From NCBI GenBank assembly GCA_018061075.1, contig JAGOUW010000001.1:12401-76400 (forward strand): a stretch of DNA of 64,000 nucleotides, in the 5' to 3' direction. Origin of the DNA: Candidatus Levyibacteriota bacterium. Lineage in GTDB: Bacteria; Patescibacteriota; Microgenomatia; Levybacterales; UBA12049. Position 1 is the first letter of the stretch. Every line of letters begins with the position of its first letter. The translations under genes and the position numbers were made by a program. The notes beneath the pieces were generated by a model, which saw only the letters and a program-made list of their open reading frames with translations, did no database searches and had not been told where the DNA came from. This document shows positions 1 through 42,412 of this stretch, piece after piece.

Positions 1-3120
<3,120 letters not shown>

Positions 3121-5688: not shown

Positions 5689-6036
5689 CTATCTTCTCCA
5701 ATATGGATTCACACCCCTTGATGGTCTTCCGTCTTCTCCTCTTCCCTTATGAACTAATGGTTCAAAAAGATGAATGGAGACAAATCCTTCACCCTGTGGT
5801 AAAGGCTGAGCGGAAAAACCTTCATTTGAAACATGAAATTTTCGAGTTCCAGCTTCCGTTGTCCTCCCGGGTTTCCCAGCTAAAAGCTCACCGCTCACTA
5901 CAACTGTTCTTTCTCTTGTAGCTGGATTTACACCAGATACATCCAGATTCCAGATCCTACCTTGAGAATCCATGTGCTCTCCATTTGCATCAGCTAAACT
6001 TGCTACTGGTTCTCCTTTTATAAATATAATCGGCAT
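5689..6036 (-). CDS. hypothetical protein (~115 aa); start at internal Met MPIIFIKGE with an AAGGGGGTGA ribosome-binding site
   Basis: A good Shine-Dalgarno lies 7 nt upstream of the internal ATG. The ORF follows the trxB terminator. GC-rich, G/R-rich C-terminus; function unknown. Confidence 0.35.
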   Translation of the reverse strand: MPIIFIKGEPVASLADANGEHMDSQGRIWNLDVSGVNPATRERTVVVSGELLAGKPGRTTEAGTRKFHVSNEGFSAQPLPQGEGFVSIHLFEPLVHKGRGEDGRPSRGVNPYWRR

Positions 6037-34509: not shown

Positions 34510-36867
34510 CTAGAGCTGAGCACGTTGGCCTATTACCTGCTCTATTACATTTACATCTTTTCCGTATTTAAGACGAGACAATTCTTTTATTAATTCTGCA
34601 ACTCTTGGATTTTTAGCAGCCTGCTCCTCATCCATATCTTTTGTAGTATCCAAAGAAAATGGAGGCACTGGCTCTCCGTTCACAACTGTTCTCATATAAC
34701 AATTAAAACGGTCAATATTTATTAGATCTGCTTCTGAGAATGTTGGCTGGAATTCATGTGCCAGATAATTCGCATCGGTCACTCCTACTCTAAAAGCAGC
34801 CAATGTTCCCACGTTTCCAAAAATAGCATTTTTAACTTCTTCCTCCATCTGCCCTATAAACTGGTTAGCAACTATTAAATCCAAGCGGTATTTTCTAGCT
34901 TCTGAAAGAATCTGAGCGAAGTCAGGAGTTGCAAAGTTCTGGAACTCGTCAACATAAAGAAAGAAGTCTTTTCTCTGATCCATAGGCATAGTTTGCCTAC
35001 TCATAGCAGCGATAAGAATTTTTGGAACTAAAATCAAACCCAGGAAGCTTGAATTTTCTTCACCAATCTTTCCTTTTGAAAGATTTATAAGGAGAATTTT
35101 TTGATTATTCATAACTTCTTTCACATTAAATGCAGATTCAGATTGGCCAATAATATTTCTCATGGTTTTATTTGTAACGAAACGACCGAACTTAGAAACG
35201 ATGTAATCTAAAACTTCTGATTTGTGAAAGTCAGAAGTCTGAGCAATCTGATCAGTCCAATATCTGCGGACAATTGGATCCTGAACGTGAGGAAGAAGCT
35301 CCTGAACGAAATTTGCATCAGTTAAAACACGAACAACCTCTATAAAAGTGCTTCCTTTCCTACTCATAACTGTAAGCATCGCGTTTCTGATGGCGTGCTC
35401 AAATCGAGGTCCGATAATTCCAGTTTTATTAGGATCATAAAGCTTATACATGAGTCCGACAATTGAGGACACCACGTAGTGTTTTTCCTCTTCAGTATCA
35501 GCTTCTAACATGTTTAATCCCATCGGACGCGATGTATCAGACGGATCAAATAAAATCACATCTTCTGCTCTCTCTGGTGGAATCATTTGTAGAATATCTT
35601 CAATAAGATCTCCATGAGGATCTACCACTCCGACTCCCTCTCCATTTTTAATATCCTGAAGAATCATTTGCTTAAGAAACTCTGTTTTTCCAGTTCCTGT
35701 TTTTCCGATAATGTAAGTGTGTCTTCTTCTATCATCTCTCTCTACATGTACATCTCGAGACAATCCTCTATATATGCTTTTACCCAGAAAAAGCCCAGTG
35801 GTTGGAACATGTGCTGCGACCGGAGCCCTCTTGGAGCTAACCCAGAAAATATGAGGAGTTGCAACAGATTTATTTGGAAAATGAAAAATCGTAGCCAGTT
35901 CTTCTGAGCTTAAGATCGAAGGAGCACCACGCTTTTGATGATATCTATAAATAAAATCATCCATAAATGCTTTTTGCCTTTTTACGCTCACTTTTGTGAA
36001 TGAATTGTGGCCATTAAACTGACTAAAAGCATTTTTAATATTACTTAAATGAGCTTCAGCAGTCTCTTTAGTAGAGGACGCAACAACTAGCCTAACTACT
36101 GTATTAAACCCAGGCTTACTAACTTTAGATTCTATTGATTCAAGTTCTTTTGCGTCAACTGAATATTTTGCCGTTTCAGGATTTGCTTCCTCTTTTTTAG
36201 TATGTGAAACATGATCCTTACCTAATTTTTTCCATGCTGACTCAGCTGGAGAAATAACAATTTGAATCGCAGCTCCCTCTCCTTCAGTCATTTTTGCGAG
36301 AACTGAAGTTATAGTAGACAGTGGATCTACTGCAAATTCTTTATATGTTTTAATTGATTCATAATTATCTTTTTTAAGCCCTAATTGCGCAAAAGCTACT
36401 TTAGAATTTTCTCCGAAAATATTATAGTCATTTCCCACTACAAACCCTTCTTTTAGGGAAGTTTTTTCAGTTACTTCTTTTATCTCAGCATCTGGATAGG
36501 CTCCGTTTATCTGCTTTTCTACAAAATCTTTATATTTATTAGGAACGGAAATAAAAAATCTGATATCTCCTGGCATTCCAACAATTTCAAATGATAATAC
36601 AGGCTGATCTACAAGCCATTGTGGTTTTCCACTTTTATGAAGCGATGCAAAGCTTGAAAAAAGTTGTTCAGCTGCATCAATCTTTACCTCGTTGTCTCGA
36701 GGAAGTGCGATCTGAAGAAGAGTTGAATCAAGTGAAGCTTTTTCCCTATGCCTATATTTATATCTGAGAGCAAGAACGTAGCTAATTCCTCCAATCGCAG
36801 CGGAAAGAAGGCCAAGAATTAAAATGGCCAACATCATGTTAAACATTAAAGCGAAAGGATTTCCCAT
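34510..36867 (-). CDS. TraD/VirD4/TrwB-type coupling-protein-like ATPase (membrane-anchored, 785 aa)
   Basis: N-terminal TM. Walker A IIGKTGTGKTEF followed by VVDPHGDL (compare TrwB IVDPNGD). Walker B FLYVDEFQNF and RKYRLDLIVANQ (RK...Q motif of type IV coupling proteins). An unusual domain of about 330 aa sits between the TM and the NTPase. Confidence 0.55.
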   Translation of the reverse strand: MGNPFALMFNMMLAILILGLLSAAIGGISYVLALRYKYRHREKASLDSTLLQIALPRDNEVKIDAAEQLFSSFASLHKSGKPQWLVDQPVLSFEIVGMPGDIRFFISVPNKYKDFVEKQINGAYPDAEIKEVTEKTSLKEGFVVGNDYNIFGENSKVAFAQLGLKKDNYESIKTYKEFAVDPLSTITSVLAKMTEGEGAAIQIVISPAESAWKKLGKDHVSHTKKEEANPETAKYSVDAKELESIESKVSKPGFNTVVRLVVASSTKETAEAHLSNIKNAFSQFNGHNSFTKVSVKRQKAFMDDFIYRYHQKRGAPSILSSEELATIFHFPNKSVATPHIFWVSSKRAPVAAHVPTTGLFLGKSIYRGLSRDVHVERDDRRRHTYIIGKTGTGKTEFLKQMILQDIKNGEGVGVVDPHGDLIEDILQMIPPERAEDVILFDPSDTSRPMGLNMLEADTEEEKHYVVSSIVGLMYKLYDPNKTGIIGPRFEHAIRNAMLTVMSRKGSTFIEVVRVLTDANFVQELLPHVQDPIVRRYWTDQIAQTSDFHKSEVLDYIVSKFGRFVTNKTMRNIIGQSESAFNVKEVMNNQKILLINLSKGKIGEENSSFLGLILVPKILIAAMSRQTMPMDQRKDFFLYVDEFQNFATPDFAQILSEARKYRLDLIVANQFIGQMEEEVKNAIFGNVGTLAAFRVGVTDANYLAHEFQPTFSEADLINIDRFNCYMRTVVNGEPVPPFSLDTTKDMDEEQAAKNPRVAELIKELSRLKYGKDVNVIEQVIGQRAQL

Positions 36868-36872
36868 TATAT

Positions 36873-37241
36873 TTAAGCCGCCTTTCTATCTATTTGTCTT
36901 TCGTAAACCAAACCAGCTCCAGTTGAACCTTCACTAGCTTTTCCTTTTGTTGCCGCGATTGCAGCTTCAGGCGTTCCAAATCCATCAGGTAAACTAATTC
37001 CAGATCCGTCTACCATGGAAAGCTTTGCGGGAGTCTGCACCGCTCCTGTTCCCTCAAGTGAATGCTCAGGCACAGCTACCGGCTTTACAAATCCAGAAAG
37101 CTCTTCTGCAATTGCAGGCAGTTGATGTGTTGCTTGTACGAAATCATCAGCTTGTGCTATCTCAGCCTTAGCCAACTTTTCTGCCTCAGATGAAGCTGCA
37201 GCAACCGGAATTTTAGGTATTAAATTTTGATCTTCATTCAT
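36873..37241 (-). CDS. hypothetical Ala-rich protein (122 aa)
   Basis: ORF immediately upstream of the coupling-protein-like gene, same strand. Confidence 0.4.
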   Translation of the reverse strand: MNEDQNLIPKIPVAAASSEAEKLAKAEIAQADDFVQATHQLPAIAEELSGFVKPVAVPEHSLEGTGAVQTPAKLSMVDGSGISLPDGFGTPEAAIAATKGKASEGSTGAGLVYERQIDRKAA

Positions 37242-37317: not shown

Positions 37318-37851
37318 TCACTTCTTTTTCCAGATTTTTTCTTTCTTTCTTTCCTTGTAGTTTACGAAGCGCGCAATAGTAAATAATAAATCTGATAAAC
37401 GATTTAGATAAACTATAATTGCATTATCAATTTCTTCAGTTCTATTTAAATCTACGATGCGTCTTTCAGCTCGCCTAGCAATCGTACGCGCAACATGAAT
37501 AAGAGAGCCTCCTCTTCCTCCACCTGGAAGAATAAATTGATTTAACGGAGGCATTTGCTTTGTGAGCTTATCAATCAATTTTTCAAACTCTGCGGGCCTA
37601 TGAGCAATTTGGGGAGCTGGTAAAGTAAAAGATACAGCTAGTGAAGAGCCAATTTCTAAAAGATCATTTTGAATTTCTTCTAATTCTTTATTTACTGAAG
37701 CTATCTTTATAAACGCTGAGGCTGCACCAATCGCAGAATTTAATTCGTCAATTGTGCCATAAGTCTCGACTTTCTTATCAGACTTTAAAACTTTTTTTCC
37801 GTCAAAAAGCGAAGTTTTACCCTTGTCTCCTGTTCTTGTATAAATAGGCAT
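37318..37851 (-). CDS. pduO: PduO-type ATP:cob(I)alamin adenosyltransferase
   Basis: N-terminus MPIYTRTGDKGKTSLFDG matches the PduO/MMAB signature. 177 aa. Confidence 0.85.
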   Translation of the reverse strand: MPIYTRTGDKGKTSLFDGKKVLKSDKKVETYGTIDELNSAIGAASAFIKIASVNKELEEIQNDLLEIGSSLAVSFTLPAPQIAHRPAEFEKLIDKLTKQMPPLNQFILPGGGRGGSLIHVARTIARRAERRIVDLNRTEEIDNAIIVYLNRLSDLLFTIARFVNYKERKKEKIWKKK

Positions 37852-38419
37852 AAATATTCTGTTTTGACAATTTTATAGCAGCCTCAAAACTTCCAAAAAA
37901 TAAAGCTACATAGAAAATATCTCCAGCGAGCGTATTTTTGAAAAATGGAATTGCCATTACGTAGGCTTGAAGCATTCCATCGATATTTTTAGGATATAAA
38001 GATGTTGCGTAAAAGAAATTAAAATTAGTAATTAGGAAAAATAAAATTGAGGAAGATAAAGAGGCGGCAATTATGTTTTTAACGGATTTATGAGATCTTA
38101 ACCAAATTCCAATAAGAGCAACAACTAAAAAACTACCATAAACAGCTAGTGTTGATGCGTGAATTAAAGATTGAGGGGAATATAATTTTGAGAAGTTAAT
38201 AAATTGCGGGGAAAAAGGATTTATATATAAAAGCAGATAGTCCGAAACAATTAACGTACAGAAAACGATAATAAGCGAGTACTTCCTGTTAAGGTAAGTG
38301 CCTCCGAAAAGAGCCATTGCAGCAATCGGTGCAAAATTTGCTGGATGAGGAAACAATCTGATTAAGACTGCCATCAAAATAATAAATAATGGGCCAATGT
38401 AATTTTTAATATCTTTCAT
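37817..38419 (-). CDS. small polytopic membrane protein, ECF-transporter S-component-like; candidate cobalamin uptake component
   Basis: 200 aa, about 6 TM. Encoded between the DUF4430 B12-binding gene and pduO, downstream of a putative cobalamin riboswitch. No ECF A/T genes nearby. Confidence 0.35.
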   Translation of the reverse strand: MKDIKNYIGPLFIILMAVLIRLFPHPANFAPIAAMALFGGTYLNRKYSLIIVFCTLIVSDYLLLYINPFSPQFINFSKLYSPQSLIHASTLAVYGSFLVVALIGIWLRSHKSVKNIIAASLSSSILFFLITNFNFFYATSLYPKNIDGMLQAYVMAIPFFKNTLAGDIFYVALFFGSFEAAIKLSKQNIYAYLYKNRRQG

Positions 38420-38420
38420 T

Positions 38421-39116
38421 TTAAAAACTAGTTAATACAAATTCAAGTTTATCATTATTGTTACATTTATAAGAAGAGACACCAGTACTAGCTGATGCAC
38501 CATTTATTCTAAATTCATAAAACTGATTTGCCGCAGCGTCTACCCCATTAAAGGAAGTTATAAATTTACCCATATCCCCTCCATAATCTGTGTACTTAAT
38601 ATTATCTGCTCCAATCGCGGCAACTACTGCTTCCCAGGCTGTCTGATCGGGAATAAGAGCTACATTATAAGAATCAGAAGACTTCTGTCCTGAATAATCA
38701 ACTCCAATTTGTACACTTAAACCCGCAGGAATAGGTGAAGGAGACGATGTAAGTGTCACTATTGGAGCAGTTGATATGTTTGGCACAGAAGTAGGTGCAG
38801 GCGTAACAGCTGAAGATGAATTATTACTTGGTACTGGTGTTGGGGTTAGAGAAATTTTTTGAACAAAAGTAATAGATGGAATTAATTTAGGAGCTAGTGT
38901 AGGAGTTGTGGAGATGGGTTTGGTTGGATTTGTATTTACAACAACTTTTTTAGAACTTGCTCCCAATACTTCTTTATTCTTATTTGCTTCAGTTTCATTT
39001 ACACTAAAAACCGATGCGCCCAGCAAAGACAAAGAGACAAATACAATAATAAACAAACCCTTACTTTTCCAAAGTTTATTTTTTATATCTACTAAATTTA
39101 GTTGTAATTTACCCAT
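38421..39116 (-). CDS. DUF4430-domain surface protein (predicted cobalamin-binding), N-terminal anchor plus Pro/Thr linker
   Basis: C-terminal YEFRINGASASTGVSSYKCNNNDKLEFVLTSF fits the DUF4430 pattern (VNG...G...Y.L..GD.I.W.Y). Start moved to MGKLQL (ATG at 39116), which has an AGAGGAG ribosome-binding site. Confidence 0.6.
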   Translation of the reverse strand: MGKLQLNLVDIKNKLWKSKGLFIIVFVSLSLLGASVFSVNETEANKNKEVLGASSKKVVVNTNPTKPISTTPTLAPKLIPSITFVQKISLTPTPVPSNNSSSAVTPAPTSVPNISTAPIVTLTSSPSPIPAGLSVQIGVDYSGQKSSDSYNVALIPDQTAWEAVVAAIGADNIKYTDYGGDMGKFITSFNGVDAAANQFYEFRINGASASTGVSSYKCNNNDKLEFVLTSF

Positions 39117-39119
39117 AAA

Positions 39120-39290
39120 AAAACTCCTCTTTACCCTGTAAGGGTTTCTCGAGAAGTTCACCAAAAAATCTTGCTCGAGAGTCTAAATAAGGTGGTTTTC
39201 CGACTTTACGGTAGCGGCACTGTGGAGGATTTACGCCTCACTTACCCAATCCCTATTGGTTCTAAGATATTAATACTAGTTATAATGAAA
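39120..39290 (-). promoter_or_regulatory. putative cobalamin (B12) riboswitch in the leader of the DUF4430 / membrane-protein / pduO operon
   Basis: Minus-strand RNA contains AAUAGGGA...GGCGUAAAUCC...CCGCUACCGUAAAG, which parallels the consensus AAUAGGGAA..GGUGAAAAUCC..CCGCCACUGUAA. A B12-box-like AGUCGGAAAACCACC follows. The ribosome-binding site AGAGGAG plus AUG come after a CCCUUACAGGG hairpin. Confidence 0.5.
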
Positions 39291-39305: not shown

Positions 39306-41708
39306 TTAACATTCAGAGTGACCGCAAGCATAACACTTGCCGCATCCCTCTTCAAATACGAAAGCTGAAGTTCCGCATTCTGGACAAATATCAAAATTGT
39401 TTGTCTTAGGTTTTGTGTCAATTGTGATTCCTTCTTGAAGCGGAAGCTGCTGGAGAACTGCTATTTCTTCCTGTGGCTCAGATTTTGTTTCAACTGGAGC
39501 ATCAGCTGTTAATTTTATTTGGGCATCAGGAGTACTAGATGGAGGAACTAATTTGTCCTCTACTACTCCATTTACTTTAAACGCATATTGTCTTGCAAGA
39601 ATCTTTGCGACAGCATCAGGAAGTGATCTTACTCTATTTTCACCAAATCCAACACTTCTTGCTCCTCCAATTCCAGACAGCTGAGATATAACCTGGCGGA
39701 TCCTCTCGCGCGGCGGCAGGTTGCCTGCGAGACTTAAATTCAAAGAAATCATGCGTCCTAATGCTTCAGCCATAGCTGCAACATCAGAACCTGTTTTACC
39801 AATTGTTATAAACATTTCAAATGGTTCTCTATTTTGATCATGATTAAGAGTAATATAGGTGTCACCTACTGGAGTTTGAGTCTTATATGTAACTCCTTCC
39901 ATCATCATTGGACGAGGCGCTCTAACTGTGTGATTTGCAACGTCTGGAACTTTTACTTCTTCCTTCTTTTCTTCAACTCTTGAGAGAACTCCCTCCCGTG
40001 ATCCATCTCTCATGTAAGTTACGCCCTTTAAACCATTGTCATAAGCTGACATATAAAGATTTTTTACATCGTCAACCGTATGAGCATTTGGAGCATTAAC
40101 AGTTTTACTTATCGAAGAATCAATATATTCCTGAGCAATTGCCTGAACTGTTACGTGCTCCTCTGGAGTTAAATCATTTGCACTAACAAAATATCCTGGT
40201 TTTTCTGCATCTGGATTCTGTTTTCTCCATTCATCATATAATGGATGAAACATCTTGTGCTCCCCTAACCTATCGCGTCTTATAAATTCAAACTCATATA
40301 CTGGCTCAACTCCAGATGACACTCCTGAAATCAAACTTGTGGTTCCTGTAGGAGCAATAGTTAATAAAACTGCATTTCTGATTCCATTTTTTGCAATCTT
40401 ATCTCTAATTGGCTGAGGTAATCTTTGAATGTGATATCCCTTTAGATATTTTTCTTTATTAAATTTAGGAAATGCTCCTTTTTCTTTCGCAATATCAGCT
40501 GAAGCATCATATGCTTCATTTCTTAGAGTTTCGAAAATCTTTTTAATAGTGGCCTCTGATTCAGGTGCTCCATACTTTAATTTCATTTTTATTAAAGCAT
40601 CAGCAAGTCCTAAAATTCCTAAACCAGTTCTTCTAATGTCTTTTGCTACTTTTTCATTTTCTTTAAAGAAGTAGTATGTATCATCAATTACATTATCTAA
40701 AAATCTCATTGCGACTCTTACGTCTTTTCCAAATCTAGTGTATTCAAATTCTCCTTTTTCATTTACATAAGCTGATAAATTCATTGCTCCTAAATTACAT
40801 ACTGCCCAAGCGCCTAATGGCTGCTCTCCACATGGATTTGTAGCGATTAGAGTTTCAAAATATGCTGTGTTTGATCTCTTATTGCTTCGGTCTAGGAAAT
40901 GAAGACCTGGTTCTGCTGAAGTCCAAGCTGCTTTACAGATAAGATCCCAGAGATATTTTGCTTTAACGGTTTTTTTAACTACGACTTTTCCTCCAAGTTT
41001 TTTCCAACCTTCAAGATCTCCATTCCATTTTTCATCATATTTAGGATCATCTAAGTCTGGGTATTCCAAATCCCAATCTGTATCAGCTTTTACTGCTTCC
41101 ATGAATGCGTCAGAAACACAGACTGATAAATTAGCTCCATTTATGCGAGTAAGATCCTGCTTTACGGTAATAAATTCCTCGATGTCTGGATGCCAGTCGT
41201 GAAGCATAAGCATAAGCGCTCCTCTTCTACTCCCACCCTGCTGAACAATATCTTTCGTAGCTAGAGAATAAAGCTCTGCCCAGTTCATAGGACCTGAAGA
41301 AAAACCATTTACCTTTCTAACACGCGACCCTTTTGGACGAAGACTTGATAAATTAATTCCTACTCCTCCACCTCGAGCCATGATTTCAATCATGATTTTA
41401 AGATTATCTAAAATTCCATCCCTGGAATCTTTTGGAGATGGGATAACGAAGCAGTTAAAGTATGTAACGTCAAATCCAGTTCCTGCTCCAGCTAAAATAC
41501 GTCCGCCTGGAAGAAACTTAAATCCATCCATAGCCTCATAGAATTTTTTCTCCCAATGCTTCTGGTCAGACTTTTTTTCCTGTCCAGCAATCCCCTTTGC
41601 AACTCTTCTCCACATCTCATCTGGAGTTTGTTCCATAGGATTACCTTCTTTATCTTTTAAAGAATATCTGTCTAAAAATACTTTTTGCCTTACTCCATCT
41701 AATTTCAT
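39306..41708 (-). CDS. nrdJ: adenosylcobalamin-dependent ribonucleotide reductase (class II) with C-terminal zinc ribbon
   Basis: 800 aa. Conserved TNPCGEQPL active-site block. C-terminal CPECG...CGKCYACGHSEC 4-Cys motifs. Confidence 0.9.
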   Translation of the reverse strand: MKLDGVRQKVFLDRYSLKDKEGNPMEQTPDEMWRRVAKGIAGQEKKSDQKHWEKKFYEAMDGFKFLPGGRILAGAGTGFDVTYFNCFVIPSPKDSRDGILDNLKIMIEIMARGGGVGINLSSLRPKGSRVRKVNGFSSGPMNWAELYSLATKDIVQQGGSRRGALMLMLHDWHPDIEEFITVKQDLTRINGANLSVCVSDAFMEAVKADTDWDLEYPDLDDPKYDEKWNGDLEGWKKLGGKVVVKKTVKAKYLWDLICKAAWTSAEPGLHFLDRSNKRSNTAYFETLIATNPCGEQPLGAWAVCNLGAMNLSAYVNEKGEFEYTRFGKDVRVAMRFLDNVIDDTYYFFKENEKVAKDIRRTGLGILGLADALIKMKLKYGAPESEATIKKIFETLRNEAYDASADIAKEKGAFPKFNKEKYLKGYHIQRLPQPIRDKIAKNGIRNAVLLTIAPTGTTSLISGVSSGVEPVYEFEFIRRDRLGEHKMFHPLYDEWRKQNPDAEKPGYFVSANDLTPEEHVTVQAIAQEYIDSSISKTVNAPNAHTVDDVKNLYMSAYDNGLKGVTYMRDGSREGVLSRVEEKKEEVKVPDVANHTVRAPRPMMMEGVTYKTQTPVGDTYITLNHDQNREPFEMFITIGKTGSDVAAMAEALGRMISLNLSLAGNLPPRERIRQVISQLSGIGGARSVGFGENRVRSLPDAVAKILARQYAFKVNGVVEDKLVPPSSTPDAQIKLTADAPVETKSEPQEEIAVLQQLPLQEGITIDTKPKTNNFDICPECGTSAFVFEEGCGKCYACGHSEC

Positions 41709-41711
41709 AAT

Positions 41712-42161
41712 TTAATTTATTAATTTTTTGACTTCTTTTTCAAAGTCTTCTATGTCTACAAATCTCTTGAAAACGCTCGAAAATCTTATATATGCAATCT
41801 TGTCTAACTTCTTAAGTCTGCCCGCTACCATTTGCCCTATTTTTTTACTTTCTACCTCTACTGAATCAGCTCCTCTTAGCTCTCTTTCTACTTCTACTAT
41901 TATCTTCTCAATGTCTTCAACTGATACCGTGGTCTTTTCGCAGGATCTACTGATTCCGTTTCGCAGTTTATCTCTATTAAACTGTTCTCGTCGTCCATCT
42001 TTTTTTATAACAACCAGATTAACATTCTCTACTCTTTCATATGTCGTGAATCTTTTCTCGCACTTAACACAATTTCTTCGTCTACGTATTGTTTCGAGAT
42101 CTTCACTGTCTCTGGTTTCTACTACTTCTGTTTCGCGGGAACCGCAATATGGACATTTCAT
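41712..42161 (-). CDS. nrdR: transcriptional repressor NrdR
   Basis: MKCPYCGSRETEVVETRDSED...CVKCEKRFTTYERVE zinc ribbon plus ATP-cone. 149 aa. Confidence 0.95.
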   Translation of the reverse strand: MKCPYCGSRETEVVETRDSEDLETIRRRRNCVKCEKRFTTYERVENVNLVVIKKDGRREQFNRDKLRNGISRSCEKTTVSVEDIEKIIVEVERELRGADSVEVESKKIGQMVAGRLKKLDKIAYIRFSSVFKRFVDIEDFEKEVKKLIN

Positions 42162-42213: not shown

Positions 42214-42412
42214 CAAGATCGATCATATGCCCCTAACAGTGGGGTGTCAACTAACAATTACTAGATCAAAAAATATCAGTCGTTTTTTCAGCCTCGTTTT
42301 TAAACAGGACCAAAATTTAAGCAAAAATTAAGAAAAAATCGGGTATAAAAATGTGTTTAAAAATCTTAGTGCTGGGTAAAAAATTAGAACAATGTTTATT
42401 AAAAGCTATATT

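Follow-up and report, generated by a model that had tools for sequence, protein, structure and literature searches.

The window analyzed here, a stretch of 64,000 nucleotides (nt) from a Candidatus Levyibacteriota bacterium (contig JAGOUW010000001.1, positions 12,401 to 76,400), carries on its minus strand a compact cluster of genes related to vitamin B12 (cobalamin): nrdR and nrdJ are followed by an adenosylcobalamin (AdoCbl) riboswitch of the AdoCbl-II type, a gene for a DUF4430 protein, a gene of the DUF6580 family and pduO (Table 1). The product of the DUF6580 gene (38419..37817), hereafter referred to as the target, is a protein of 200 amino acids (aa) encoded by a genuine open reading frame (ORF) from the ORF list of the window. 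With a probability of roughly 65% we consider it to be a corrinoid carrier of the type known as S-components of energy-coupling factor (ECF) transporters, bringing the corrinoid across the membrane within a B12 salvage operon and belonging to a third sequence family of such carriers next to CbrT and BtuM. Bacteria of the candidate phyla radiation (CPR, Patescibacteria) rely on scavenged cofactors and, to our knowledge, the routes of their cofactor uptake are essentially unknown. Among B12-auxotrophic bacteria the BtuCDF transporter accounts for only about half (PMC6072759). If the proposed role is true, it annotates for B12 uptake a family of 5,722 clusters (50% identity, E up to 1e-3), explains the supply of the B12-dependent ribonucleotide reductase in these tiny-genome bacteria and adds a third case, unrelated in sequence, in which an S-component fold accommodates the largest vitamin.

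Organization of the B12-Related Operon

The genes of the cluster are tightly packed, with a single nucleotide between the DUF4430 stop codon and the target ATG and with the pduO start overlapping the last 35 nt of the target gene. The riboswitch between nrdJ and the DUF4430 gene was recognized by Rfam at 39256..39187 (minus strand; 44.4 bits, gathering score 36.5), and our own covariance model R1 scores the window aptamer at 74.5 bits, a value that is circular, since the window sequence is one of the ten R1 seeds. No significant folding pointing to an expression platform was found in the region from the riboswitch to the ribosome-binding site (z 0.28). A sigma-70-like site at 42250..42222, upstream of the nrdR-like gene, fits 11/12 positions as a consensus match only, and the promoter and terminator scan on the whole yielded hits at chance level. 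The profile seeded from the nrdR-like ORF has matches in 24 related loci, and from the operon context the nrdJ product is probably a class II (AdoCbl-dependent) enzyme.

Table 1. Features of the B12-related cluster in the window
Feature	Coordinates	Strand	Basis
nrdR-like repressor gene, first of the cluster	41712..42161	-	ORF; counterparts in related loci L001 and L003 carry Pfam Zn_ribbon_NrdR and ATP-cone
nrdJ, cobalamin-linked ribonucleotide reductase	39306..41708	-	Pfam Ribonuc_red_lgC (E 1.8e-125), Ribonuc_red_lgN, TSCPD
AdoCbl-II type riboswitch aptamer, between nrdJ and the DUF4430 gene	39180..39267	-	Rfam RF01689
DUF4430 gene, membrane-anchored protein (transcobalamin C-terminal-domain family)	38421..39116	-	Pfam DUF4430
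DUF6580 gene (target), candidate corrinoid carrier	37817..38419	-	Pfam PF20221, AlphaFold2 model, Foldseek
pduO, PduO-type ATP:cob(I)alamin adenosyltransferase	37318..37851	-	Pfam Cob_adeno_trans (E 5.7e-56); TIGR00636 (E 1.9e-58)

The DUF4430 domain occupies residues 183-245 of a 247-aa ORF (37.5 bits, cut-off 23.8), for which ATG 39116, preceded by AGAGGAG at 39130..39124, is the likely start, and in front of it the protein carries a hydrophobic anchor at the N-terminus together with a linker rich in P, T and S. In TCN proteins DUF4430 forms the C-terminal domain (PMC4350170), and the window protein is likely an extracellular B12 binder; a phmmer search with it gave no match to transcobalamin. 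The target is the only membrane protein within the operon controlled by the B12 riboswitch. Other multi-spanning proteins of the window belong to MFS, ZIP, YibE/F and PMT_2 families, and no ORF of the 64 kb has the motifs of an ATPase of the ATP-binding cassette (ABC) type, i.e. Walker A together with the ABC signature; neither EcfT nor BtuC is found there. An earlier interpretation of the locus made from the letters and ORF translations only (the sequence-only reading) had placed a 200-aa protein with about six transmembrane (TM) segments between the DUF4430 gene and pduO behind a putative B12 riboswitch, had noted the lack of EcfA, EcfT or BtuCD genes nearby and had regarded this protein as the sole positional candidate for moving B12 across the membrane. 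All these statements are borne out by profile matches (Pfam, TIGR00636 and RF01689), by the inventory of membrane proteins and ABC motifs given above and by six helices in the structural model described below.

Family Assignment of the Target

The target matches Pfam DUF6580 (PF20221) over residues 10-181 with E 3.1e-48 and 164.5 bits against a cut-off of 27, and a hypothetical protein from a Candidatus Levybacteria metagenome-assembled genome (MAG; sequence P0001) shares 100% identity with it. The first homologue search with the target returned 3,015 matches, and the same Pfam domain was detected in all 143 divergent relatives selected from the family. By its profile match the target is a clear member of DUF6580 and is classifiable, so that the view of the sequence-only reading that it shows no recognizable motif has to be abandoned, the more so as the R-x-x-P-H-x-x-N/D60 signature described in the next section runs through the family. 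Most DUF6580 members listed are unnamed or called "hypothetical protein", while some relatives of the target bear the NCBI name "DUF6580 family putative transport protein". A search of the target against NCBIfam gave no match, and tblastn of the target and of the window DUF4430 protein against 72,556 plasmids found none either. Pfam families of S-components have no match in the window protein itself; among the 143 divergent members weak matches were obtained to ECF-ribofla_trS for nine (best E 7e-4) and to ECF_trnsprt for seven (best E 2e-4). The taxonomic range of DUF6580 exceeds that of CbrT or BtuM. The family has so far been listed as a domain of unknown function and no more; linking it to B12 appears to be new.

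Fold, Topology, and Conserved Residues

The AlphaFold2 model of the target, built from a 40-sequence alignment, has a mean predicted local distance difference test (pLDDT) value of 89.8 and a predicted template modeling score of 0.84, and consists of six long helices (2-21, 30-42, 45-65, 90-109, 113-138, and 146-199). Lysine and arginine residues are found at the N-terminus and in the C-tail as well as at positions 44-46 and 108-114; these helices and the positive-inside rule together suggest that both termini face the cytoplasm, in which case loops L1 (22-29), L3 (66-89), and L5 (139-145) would be exposed outside. In a Foldseek comparison with the PDB, the type of check that the sequence-only reading had proposed, the top match was the pantothenate S-component PanT (4rfs_S; TM-score 0.55/0.58, probability 0.94), and among the matches listed the only others with TM-score >0.4 were ThiT and PanT, the rest being <0.3. 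A second modeled member, P0149 from a subfamily with a short L3 loop (pLDDT 93.8), gave FolT (4huq_S), FolT, ThiT, and RibU on ranks 1-4 with probabilities 0.87-0.95 and TM-scores 0.48-0.59. For both models ECF S-components (PanT, ThiT, FolT, and RibU) were the sole PDB matches with a TM-score above ~0.33 among the 50 matches listed per model; their TM-scores spanned 0.42-0.59 and their probabilities 0.16 to 0.95, five chains having at least 0.87. The S-component fold of DUF6580 is thus well supported by the predicted structures, but the relationship is remote. The resemblance to S-components suggested from size and topology in the sequence-only reading is supported by both models; for BtuM, likewise named there, the PDB searches gave no sequence match, and its cysteine is absent from the target.

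Three residues, R21, N28, and D60, are invariant across the 143 divergent members, and P24, H25, Y94, G104, F127, N132, W136, Y142, G148, Y153, P158, and F159 are kept in at least 90% of them. The family signature R21-x-x-P24-H25-x-x-N28 plus D60 is present in the target, whose conserved polar residues comprise R21, H25, and N28 in L1, S59-D60 in TM3, Y94, T131-N132, Y142, and Y153. In the model they fall in L1, the end of TM3, the start of TM4, the end of TM5, L5, and the start of TM6, a distribution that would fit the substrate site of S-components. The sole cysteine of the target, C53 in TM3, varies among C, I, L, M, A, and V in 40 close homologues, and no cysteine is conserved across the 143 divergent members. 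In group II S-components the contact with EcfT is made via an AxxxA motif in TM1. The corresponding helix of the target contains ...M16-A17-V18-L19-I20-R21 with the family consensus A-x-x-x-R and the invariant R21, and AxxxA is absent from it.

The target and its closest Levybacteria relatives deviate from the family at the near-invariant positions P52 (V), G64 (L), and W136 (F), have an insertion of ~14 residues in loop 3 (66-89), and contain one extra residue in the "NFNFFY" segment. With the V52/L64/F136 replacements and the changes in loop 66-89, this clade has its own version of the putative binding site.

Genomic Context in Related Loci

To place the operon in a wider context, 80 species-representative loci and two metagenomic ones were fetched, the counts below being given over 79 or, for the 75 loci that show an upstream gene, over 75. 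Their ORFs were labeled with profiles seeded from the window proteins, and riboswitches were called by Rfam matches and by a covariance model built from ten AdoCbl-II matches. A DUF4430 gene occupies the same strand immediately upstream of the DUF6580 gene in 48 of 75 loci and the second position upstream in a further 10 (58/75), with 68 of the 70 profile-labeled DUF4430 ORFs confirmed by Pfam. A cobalamin riboswitch precedes the gene on the same strand in 40/79 loci, nrdJ is located upstream in 32 related loci, PduO is encoded in 15, and eight upstream neighbor ORFs match CobA/BtuR. Thus, DUF6580 is persistently tied to DUF4430, cobalamin riboswitches, nrdJ, and PduO/CobA adenosyltransferases both in CPR and in non-CPR bacteria. 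Since three Levybacteria relatives (L013, L021, and L033) retain nrdJ-DUF6580-pduO without DUF4430, DUF6580 can be regarded as the constant core element and DUF4430 as the accessory one.

Beyond CPR, riboswitch, DUF4430, and DUF6580 occur together in a Chloroflexia MAG and in an Actinobacteria MAG, and the family is also found in a Bacteroidales MAG. In two Ignavibacteria loci (L067 and L073) the riboswitch is followed by a gene for a TonB-dependent receptor and then by DUF6580; a third one (L071) has the TonB receptor and DUF6580, its upstream DNA being too short to reveal a riboswitch. In an Ignavibacteriae MAG (L054, 1568-6525) the order is riboswitch, TonB receptor, Diphthami_syn_2, a BtuF-like Peripla_BP_2 protein, and DUF6580, and neither BtuC nor BtuD is encoded within 6 kb. 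The locus thus combines a periplasmic binding protein with a protein of the S-component fold. Among divergent subfamilies, several representatives of which sit on contigs too short to show the context, P0132 and P0149 have DUF4430 upstream and P0136 adjoins a PduO gene.

An ECF module adjoins DUF6580 in none of the 79 loci (within 6 kb), and no BtuC-type permease was found in the related loci. Three ABC-like ORFs were encountered there, two of them SbcC and one a DrrA-type ATPase located 5 kb off, the latter being the sole true ABC ATPase in ~0.9 Mb of related DNA.

The DUF4430 partner itself varies in composition. In nine ORFs DUF4430 is fused to alpha/alpha-toroid domains, one of these fused forms matching the eukaryotic Cobalamin_bind, and 12 loci encode a stand-alone alpha/alpha-toroid protein (411-450 aa) between DUF4430 and DUF6580; this component is absent from the window. 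The fused forms include L008:4292-5923, L018:3964-5991, and L061:3762-5999, and the stand-alone ones L001:4671-6005, L012:1971-3308, L014:4662-5954, and others, with weak matches to Prenyltrans, SQHop_cyclase, or TED. Judged by domain content, the combination of DUF4430 with an alpha/alpha-toroid reproduces the two-domain (alpha plus beta) layout that transcobalamin and intrinsic factor have. Against PDB sequences the toroid neighbor matched squalene-hopene cyclase and MstE only, and not transcobalamin.

Comparison With Known B12 Carriers

The nearest known precedent is CbrT of Lactobacillus delbrueckii, a proven B12 S-component encoded in the cluster nrdJ-cbrS-cbrT-pduO (PMC5997447). Both clusters contain nrdJ, a small extracytoplasmic protein (of the DUF4430 type in the window, in the position of cbrS), a six-TM protein of ~200 aa with S-component fold, and pduO, both lack ECF genes, and both follow the same logic of import, adenosylation, and supply of a B12-dependent ribonucleotide reductase. 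In L. rhamnosus, a DUF4430 protein adjoining rtpR is annotated as the lipoprotein component of a cobalamin ECF transporter. In gene order the window cluster is the positional counterpart of the L. delbrueckii locus with DUF6580 in place of cbrT, and the pairing of a DUF4430 binder with an S-component beside nrdJ, already known from Lactobacillales, means that the window system is not a new kind. The sequence-only reading had considered that the protein could be a new B12 transporter family: a further carrier family is a fair reading, but the family is already catalogued as Pfam DUF6580, labeled a putative transport protein by NCBI, and set in an architecture described before. The two systems differ in that no sequence relationship between CbrT and DUF6580 was detected in PDB chain searches or among the Foldseek matches listed, an AdoCbl-II riboswitch precedes the uptake genes of the window whereas the CbrT paper mentions none (PMC5997447), DUF6580 is found in diderm bacteria too, and ECF dependence is proven for CbrT only.

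The B12 transporter and decyanase BtuM from Thiobacillus denitrificans, an S-component-like protein that acts alone, has an invariant cobalt-ligating cysteine (Cys80) in loop 3 (PMC6072759). With it DUF6580 shares the small size (~22 kDa), the S-component fold, the lack of ECF genes nearby, the proposed metabolic trapping by an adenosyltransferase and, in diderm loci (L054, L067, L071, and L073), the position behind a TonB-dependent receptor, as for btuM with btuB, with a riboswitch detected in L054, L067, and L073. On the other hand, Cys80 has no counterpart in the target, where C53 is not conserved, DUF6580 has no sequence match to any PDB chain, BtuM is mainly proteobacterial and without a DUF4430 partner, and the window operon lacks a gene for a TonB-dependent receptor. 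Membership in the BtuM family was rejected because the conserved cysteine is absent, and the target was not assigned to the CbrT family on sequence (no PDB-chain match, no CbrT among the Foldseek matches listed); the target thus appears alike in outline to both and yet a member of a separate sequence family.

The structural neighbors PanT, FolT, ThiT, and RibU, the best and only meaningful matches, have the six-helix topology in common with DUF6580. The R-x-x-P-H-x-x-N signature is, however, its own, and DUF6580 regularly goes together with an extracytoplasmic binding protein where classical S-components use none; in the loci examined it never adjoins ecfA or ecfT. BtuCD-F resembles the system in its proposed role and in the separate extracytoplasmic B12-binding protein (BtuF-like in L054), whereas the fold and size of DUF6580 are unrelated and neither ABC ATPase nor BtuC-type permease occurs in the window or in related loci, apart from the DrrA-type ATPase mentioned above. 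Identity of the target with BtuCD was rejected on size (200 aa, six helices), fold, and absence of an ATPase.

Proposed Mechanism and Its Alternatives

According to the proposed mechanism, the DUF4430 protein, membrane-tethered and transcobalamin-like, would capture cobalamin outside the cell and hand it over to the outward-facing pocket of DUF6580, which could be lined by R21, H25, and N28 of loop 1 together with S59-D60, Y94, T131-N132, Y142, and Y153. The carrier would then reorient by toppling, as S-components do, and release the corrinoid into the cytoplasm, where its adenosylation by PduO would act as a metabolic trap. AdoCbl produced in this way would serve NrdJ and act back on the AdoCbl-II riboswitch, shutting down the three uptake genes. 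The regular pairing with DUF4430, if this scheme is true, represents a bacterial parallel to mammalian B12 capture proteins.

Several observations weigh against the assignment of the target as a corrinoid carrier. The related loci were selected through peptide patterns of the subfamily to which the target itself belongs, which biases the sample to close relatives. An upstream riboswitch was not detected in 39/79 of them, 11 of which have <1.4 kb of upstream DNA. In the P0140 subfamily, probably from Bacteroidetes (L086:5146-6555), no B12 gene or riboswitch lies nearby, and the gene stands after that of a 271-aa secreted protein with a C-terminal tail of the type IX secretion system type and before Mrp/ApbC and NifU genes. 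Because of this context the link with B12 is not universal in the DUF6580 family and the function of the P0140 branch may differ; co-occurrence with DUF4430 and cobalamin riboswitches, proposed as a check in the sequence-only reading, is therefore common but does not extend to every subfamily. The fold matches are remote (TM-score ~0.55, root-mean-square deviation 4.5-6.7 Å, Foldseek E ~0.4-0.6, identity 12-17%), and neither BtuM nor CbrT, for which crystal structures are reported (BtuM-Td, PMC6072759; CbrT, PMC5997447), is among the 50 Foldseek matches listed for either model. Searches of PDB chain sequences with E up to 10, run by phmmer with the target and with profiles of 40 and 143 sequences, gave no match. 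The literature search retrieved no paper naming DUF6580 or PF20221 and no experimental datum for any DUF6580 protein; for Patescibacteria or CPR combined with ECF or cobalamin transporters it found nothing relevant.

Within the reading of the target as a carrier, the mode of its energization has to be considered separately. The sequence-only reading took the protein for a solitary carrier from the lack of ECF genes nearby, and this was overstated: CbrT in the same arrangement relies on one ECF module that is encoded outside the cluster and shared with seven other S-components (PMC5997447), so the absence of adjacent ECF genes, being equally seen for an ECF-dependent protein, is not proof of solitary action. 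Action of the target without a dedicated ECF module, in the manner of BtuM or BioY, is slightly preferred by us over a shared module, at odds a little short of even. It is favored by the lack of adjacent modules in all 79 loci, by the TonB-receptor context as for BtuM and, as a weak sign, by A-x-x-x-R in TM1.

That the target is instead a group II S-component for cobalamin, CbrT-like and in need of an EcfA-EcfA'-EcfT module encoded elsewhere, is possible but rather unlikely. The S-component fold and the gene order shared with the L. delbrueckii cluster speak for it, and the group II arrangement predicts exactly such an absence of ECF genes nearby. Against it stand the same count of zero in 79 loci along with a single true ABC ATPase, of the DrrA type, in ~0.9 Mb, the lack of a sequence match to CbrT, and the replacement of AxxxA by A17-x-x-x-R21, again a weak sign. 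In addition, the family is present in a Bacteroidales MAG and in diderm Ignavibacteria behind TonB receptors, a context that marks the ECF-independent BtuM (PMC6072759).

It is improbable that the target does not translocate B12 at all and serves the DUF4430 binder as its partner, anchor, or receptor in the membrane or processes bound corrinoid, with B12 entering via an unlinked system. The S-component fold is indeed met in non-transport sensor proteins too (PMC11109136), coupling with DUF4430 is tight (58/75 loci), and the role of a carrier is deduced from fold and context. Nevertheless, the six helices take up all 200 aa and leave no cytoplasmic output domain, the Levybacteria loci L013, L021, and L033 keep DUF6580 with nrdJ and pduO in the absence of DUF4430, in Ignavibacteria the riboswitch unit encodes no inner-membrane protein other than DUF6580, which comes after the TonB receptor, and no other candidate transporter of the window is under riboswitch control.

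S-component families dedicated to cobalt (CbiM) and to predicted B12 precursors were reportedly distinguished by Rodionov in 2009 and could be invoked if the target carried another B12-related molecule, i.e. cobinamide only, a lower ligand such as dimethylbenzimidazole, or cobalt. Such specificity is very unlikely: CbrT itself also carries cobinamide (PMC5997447), but the window operon contains only an adenosyltransferase and a B12-dependent reductase with no genes for corrin assembly or remodeling, the DUF4430 and alpha/alpha-toroid partners resemble binders of whole cobalamin, and diderm genes behind a TonB-dependent receptor imply a large substrate.

Returning to the corrinoid carrier, a generalization to the whole family can be offered as a speculative possibility with the odds against it. 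Next to CbrT and BtuM, DUF6580 might represent a third family of cobalamin carriers of the S-component type, widespread, fed by a binder and operating without an ECF ATPase module. B12 would be delivered by DUF4430, alone or with an alpha/alpha-toroid, in CPR and other monoderms, whereas in diderm Ignavibacteria this would be done by BtuB or by a BtuF-like protein. If true, a binder-fed solitary S-component is an architecture that has not been described for any vitamin transporter.

Additional Features of the Window and Related Loci

Several relatives possess a further cobalamin riboswitch that the window lacks; it is located just 3' of pduO (L008:7160-7246, L011:7090-7177, L016:7155-7242, L033:7016-7100, and L060:7056-7175) or, in L094/L095, just 3' of the DUF6580 gene (L094:764-909). 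It precedes a gene for a soluble protein of 360-560 aa without a dominant Pfam match, and proteins of the same kind are encoded after pduO in L013, L021, and L023, the AdoCbl-II match of the latter (5800-5912) lying just upstream of the start. These proteins form a loose BLAST set in which not every pair matches, have C-terminal motifs rich in cysteine and glycine (GSCG, GCAGGG), and in several cases end in a CxxC...CxxC tail. They may be B12-regulated enzymes, for instance a B12-independent isozyme. In one Patescibacteria locus (L062:3428-3636, minus strand) a group I intron (Rfam, 83.4 bits) is situated near the DUF4430-DUF6580 pair.

Immediately downstream of pduO the window contains a 122-aa ORF (36873-37241, minus strand) with no match in Pfam or NCBIfam and, further downstream, a gene for a 785-aa TrwB/TraG/DUF87-like ATPase (34510-36867, minus strand). 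A similar ATPase of ~774-796 aa is encoded downstream of the cluster in L001, L003, L006, L007, L013, L016, L021, L033, and L060, which indicates conserved synteny. At the edge of the window (1-3109, minus strand) the 23S rRNA match covers model positions 1-2768 in 3,109 nt, and the extra ~340 nt may correspond to an insertion or an intron.

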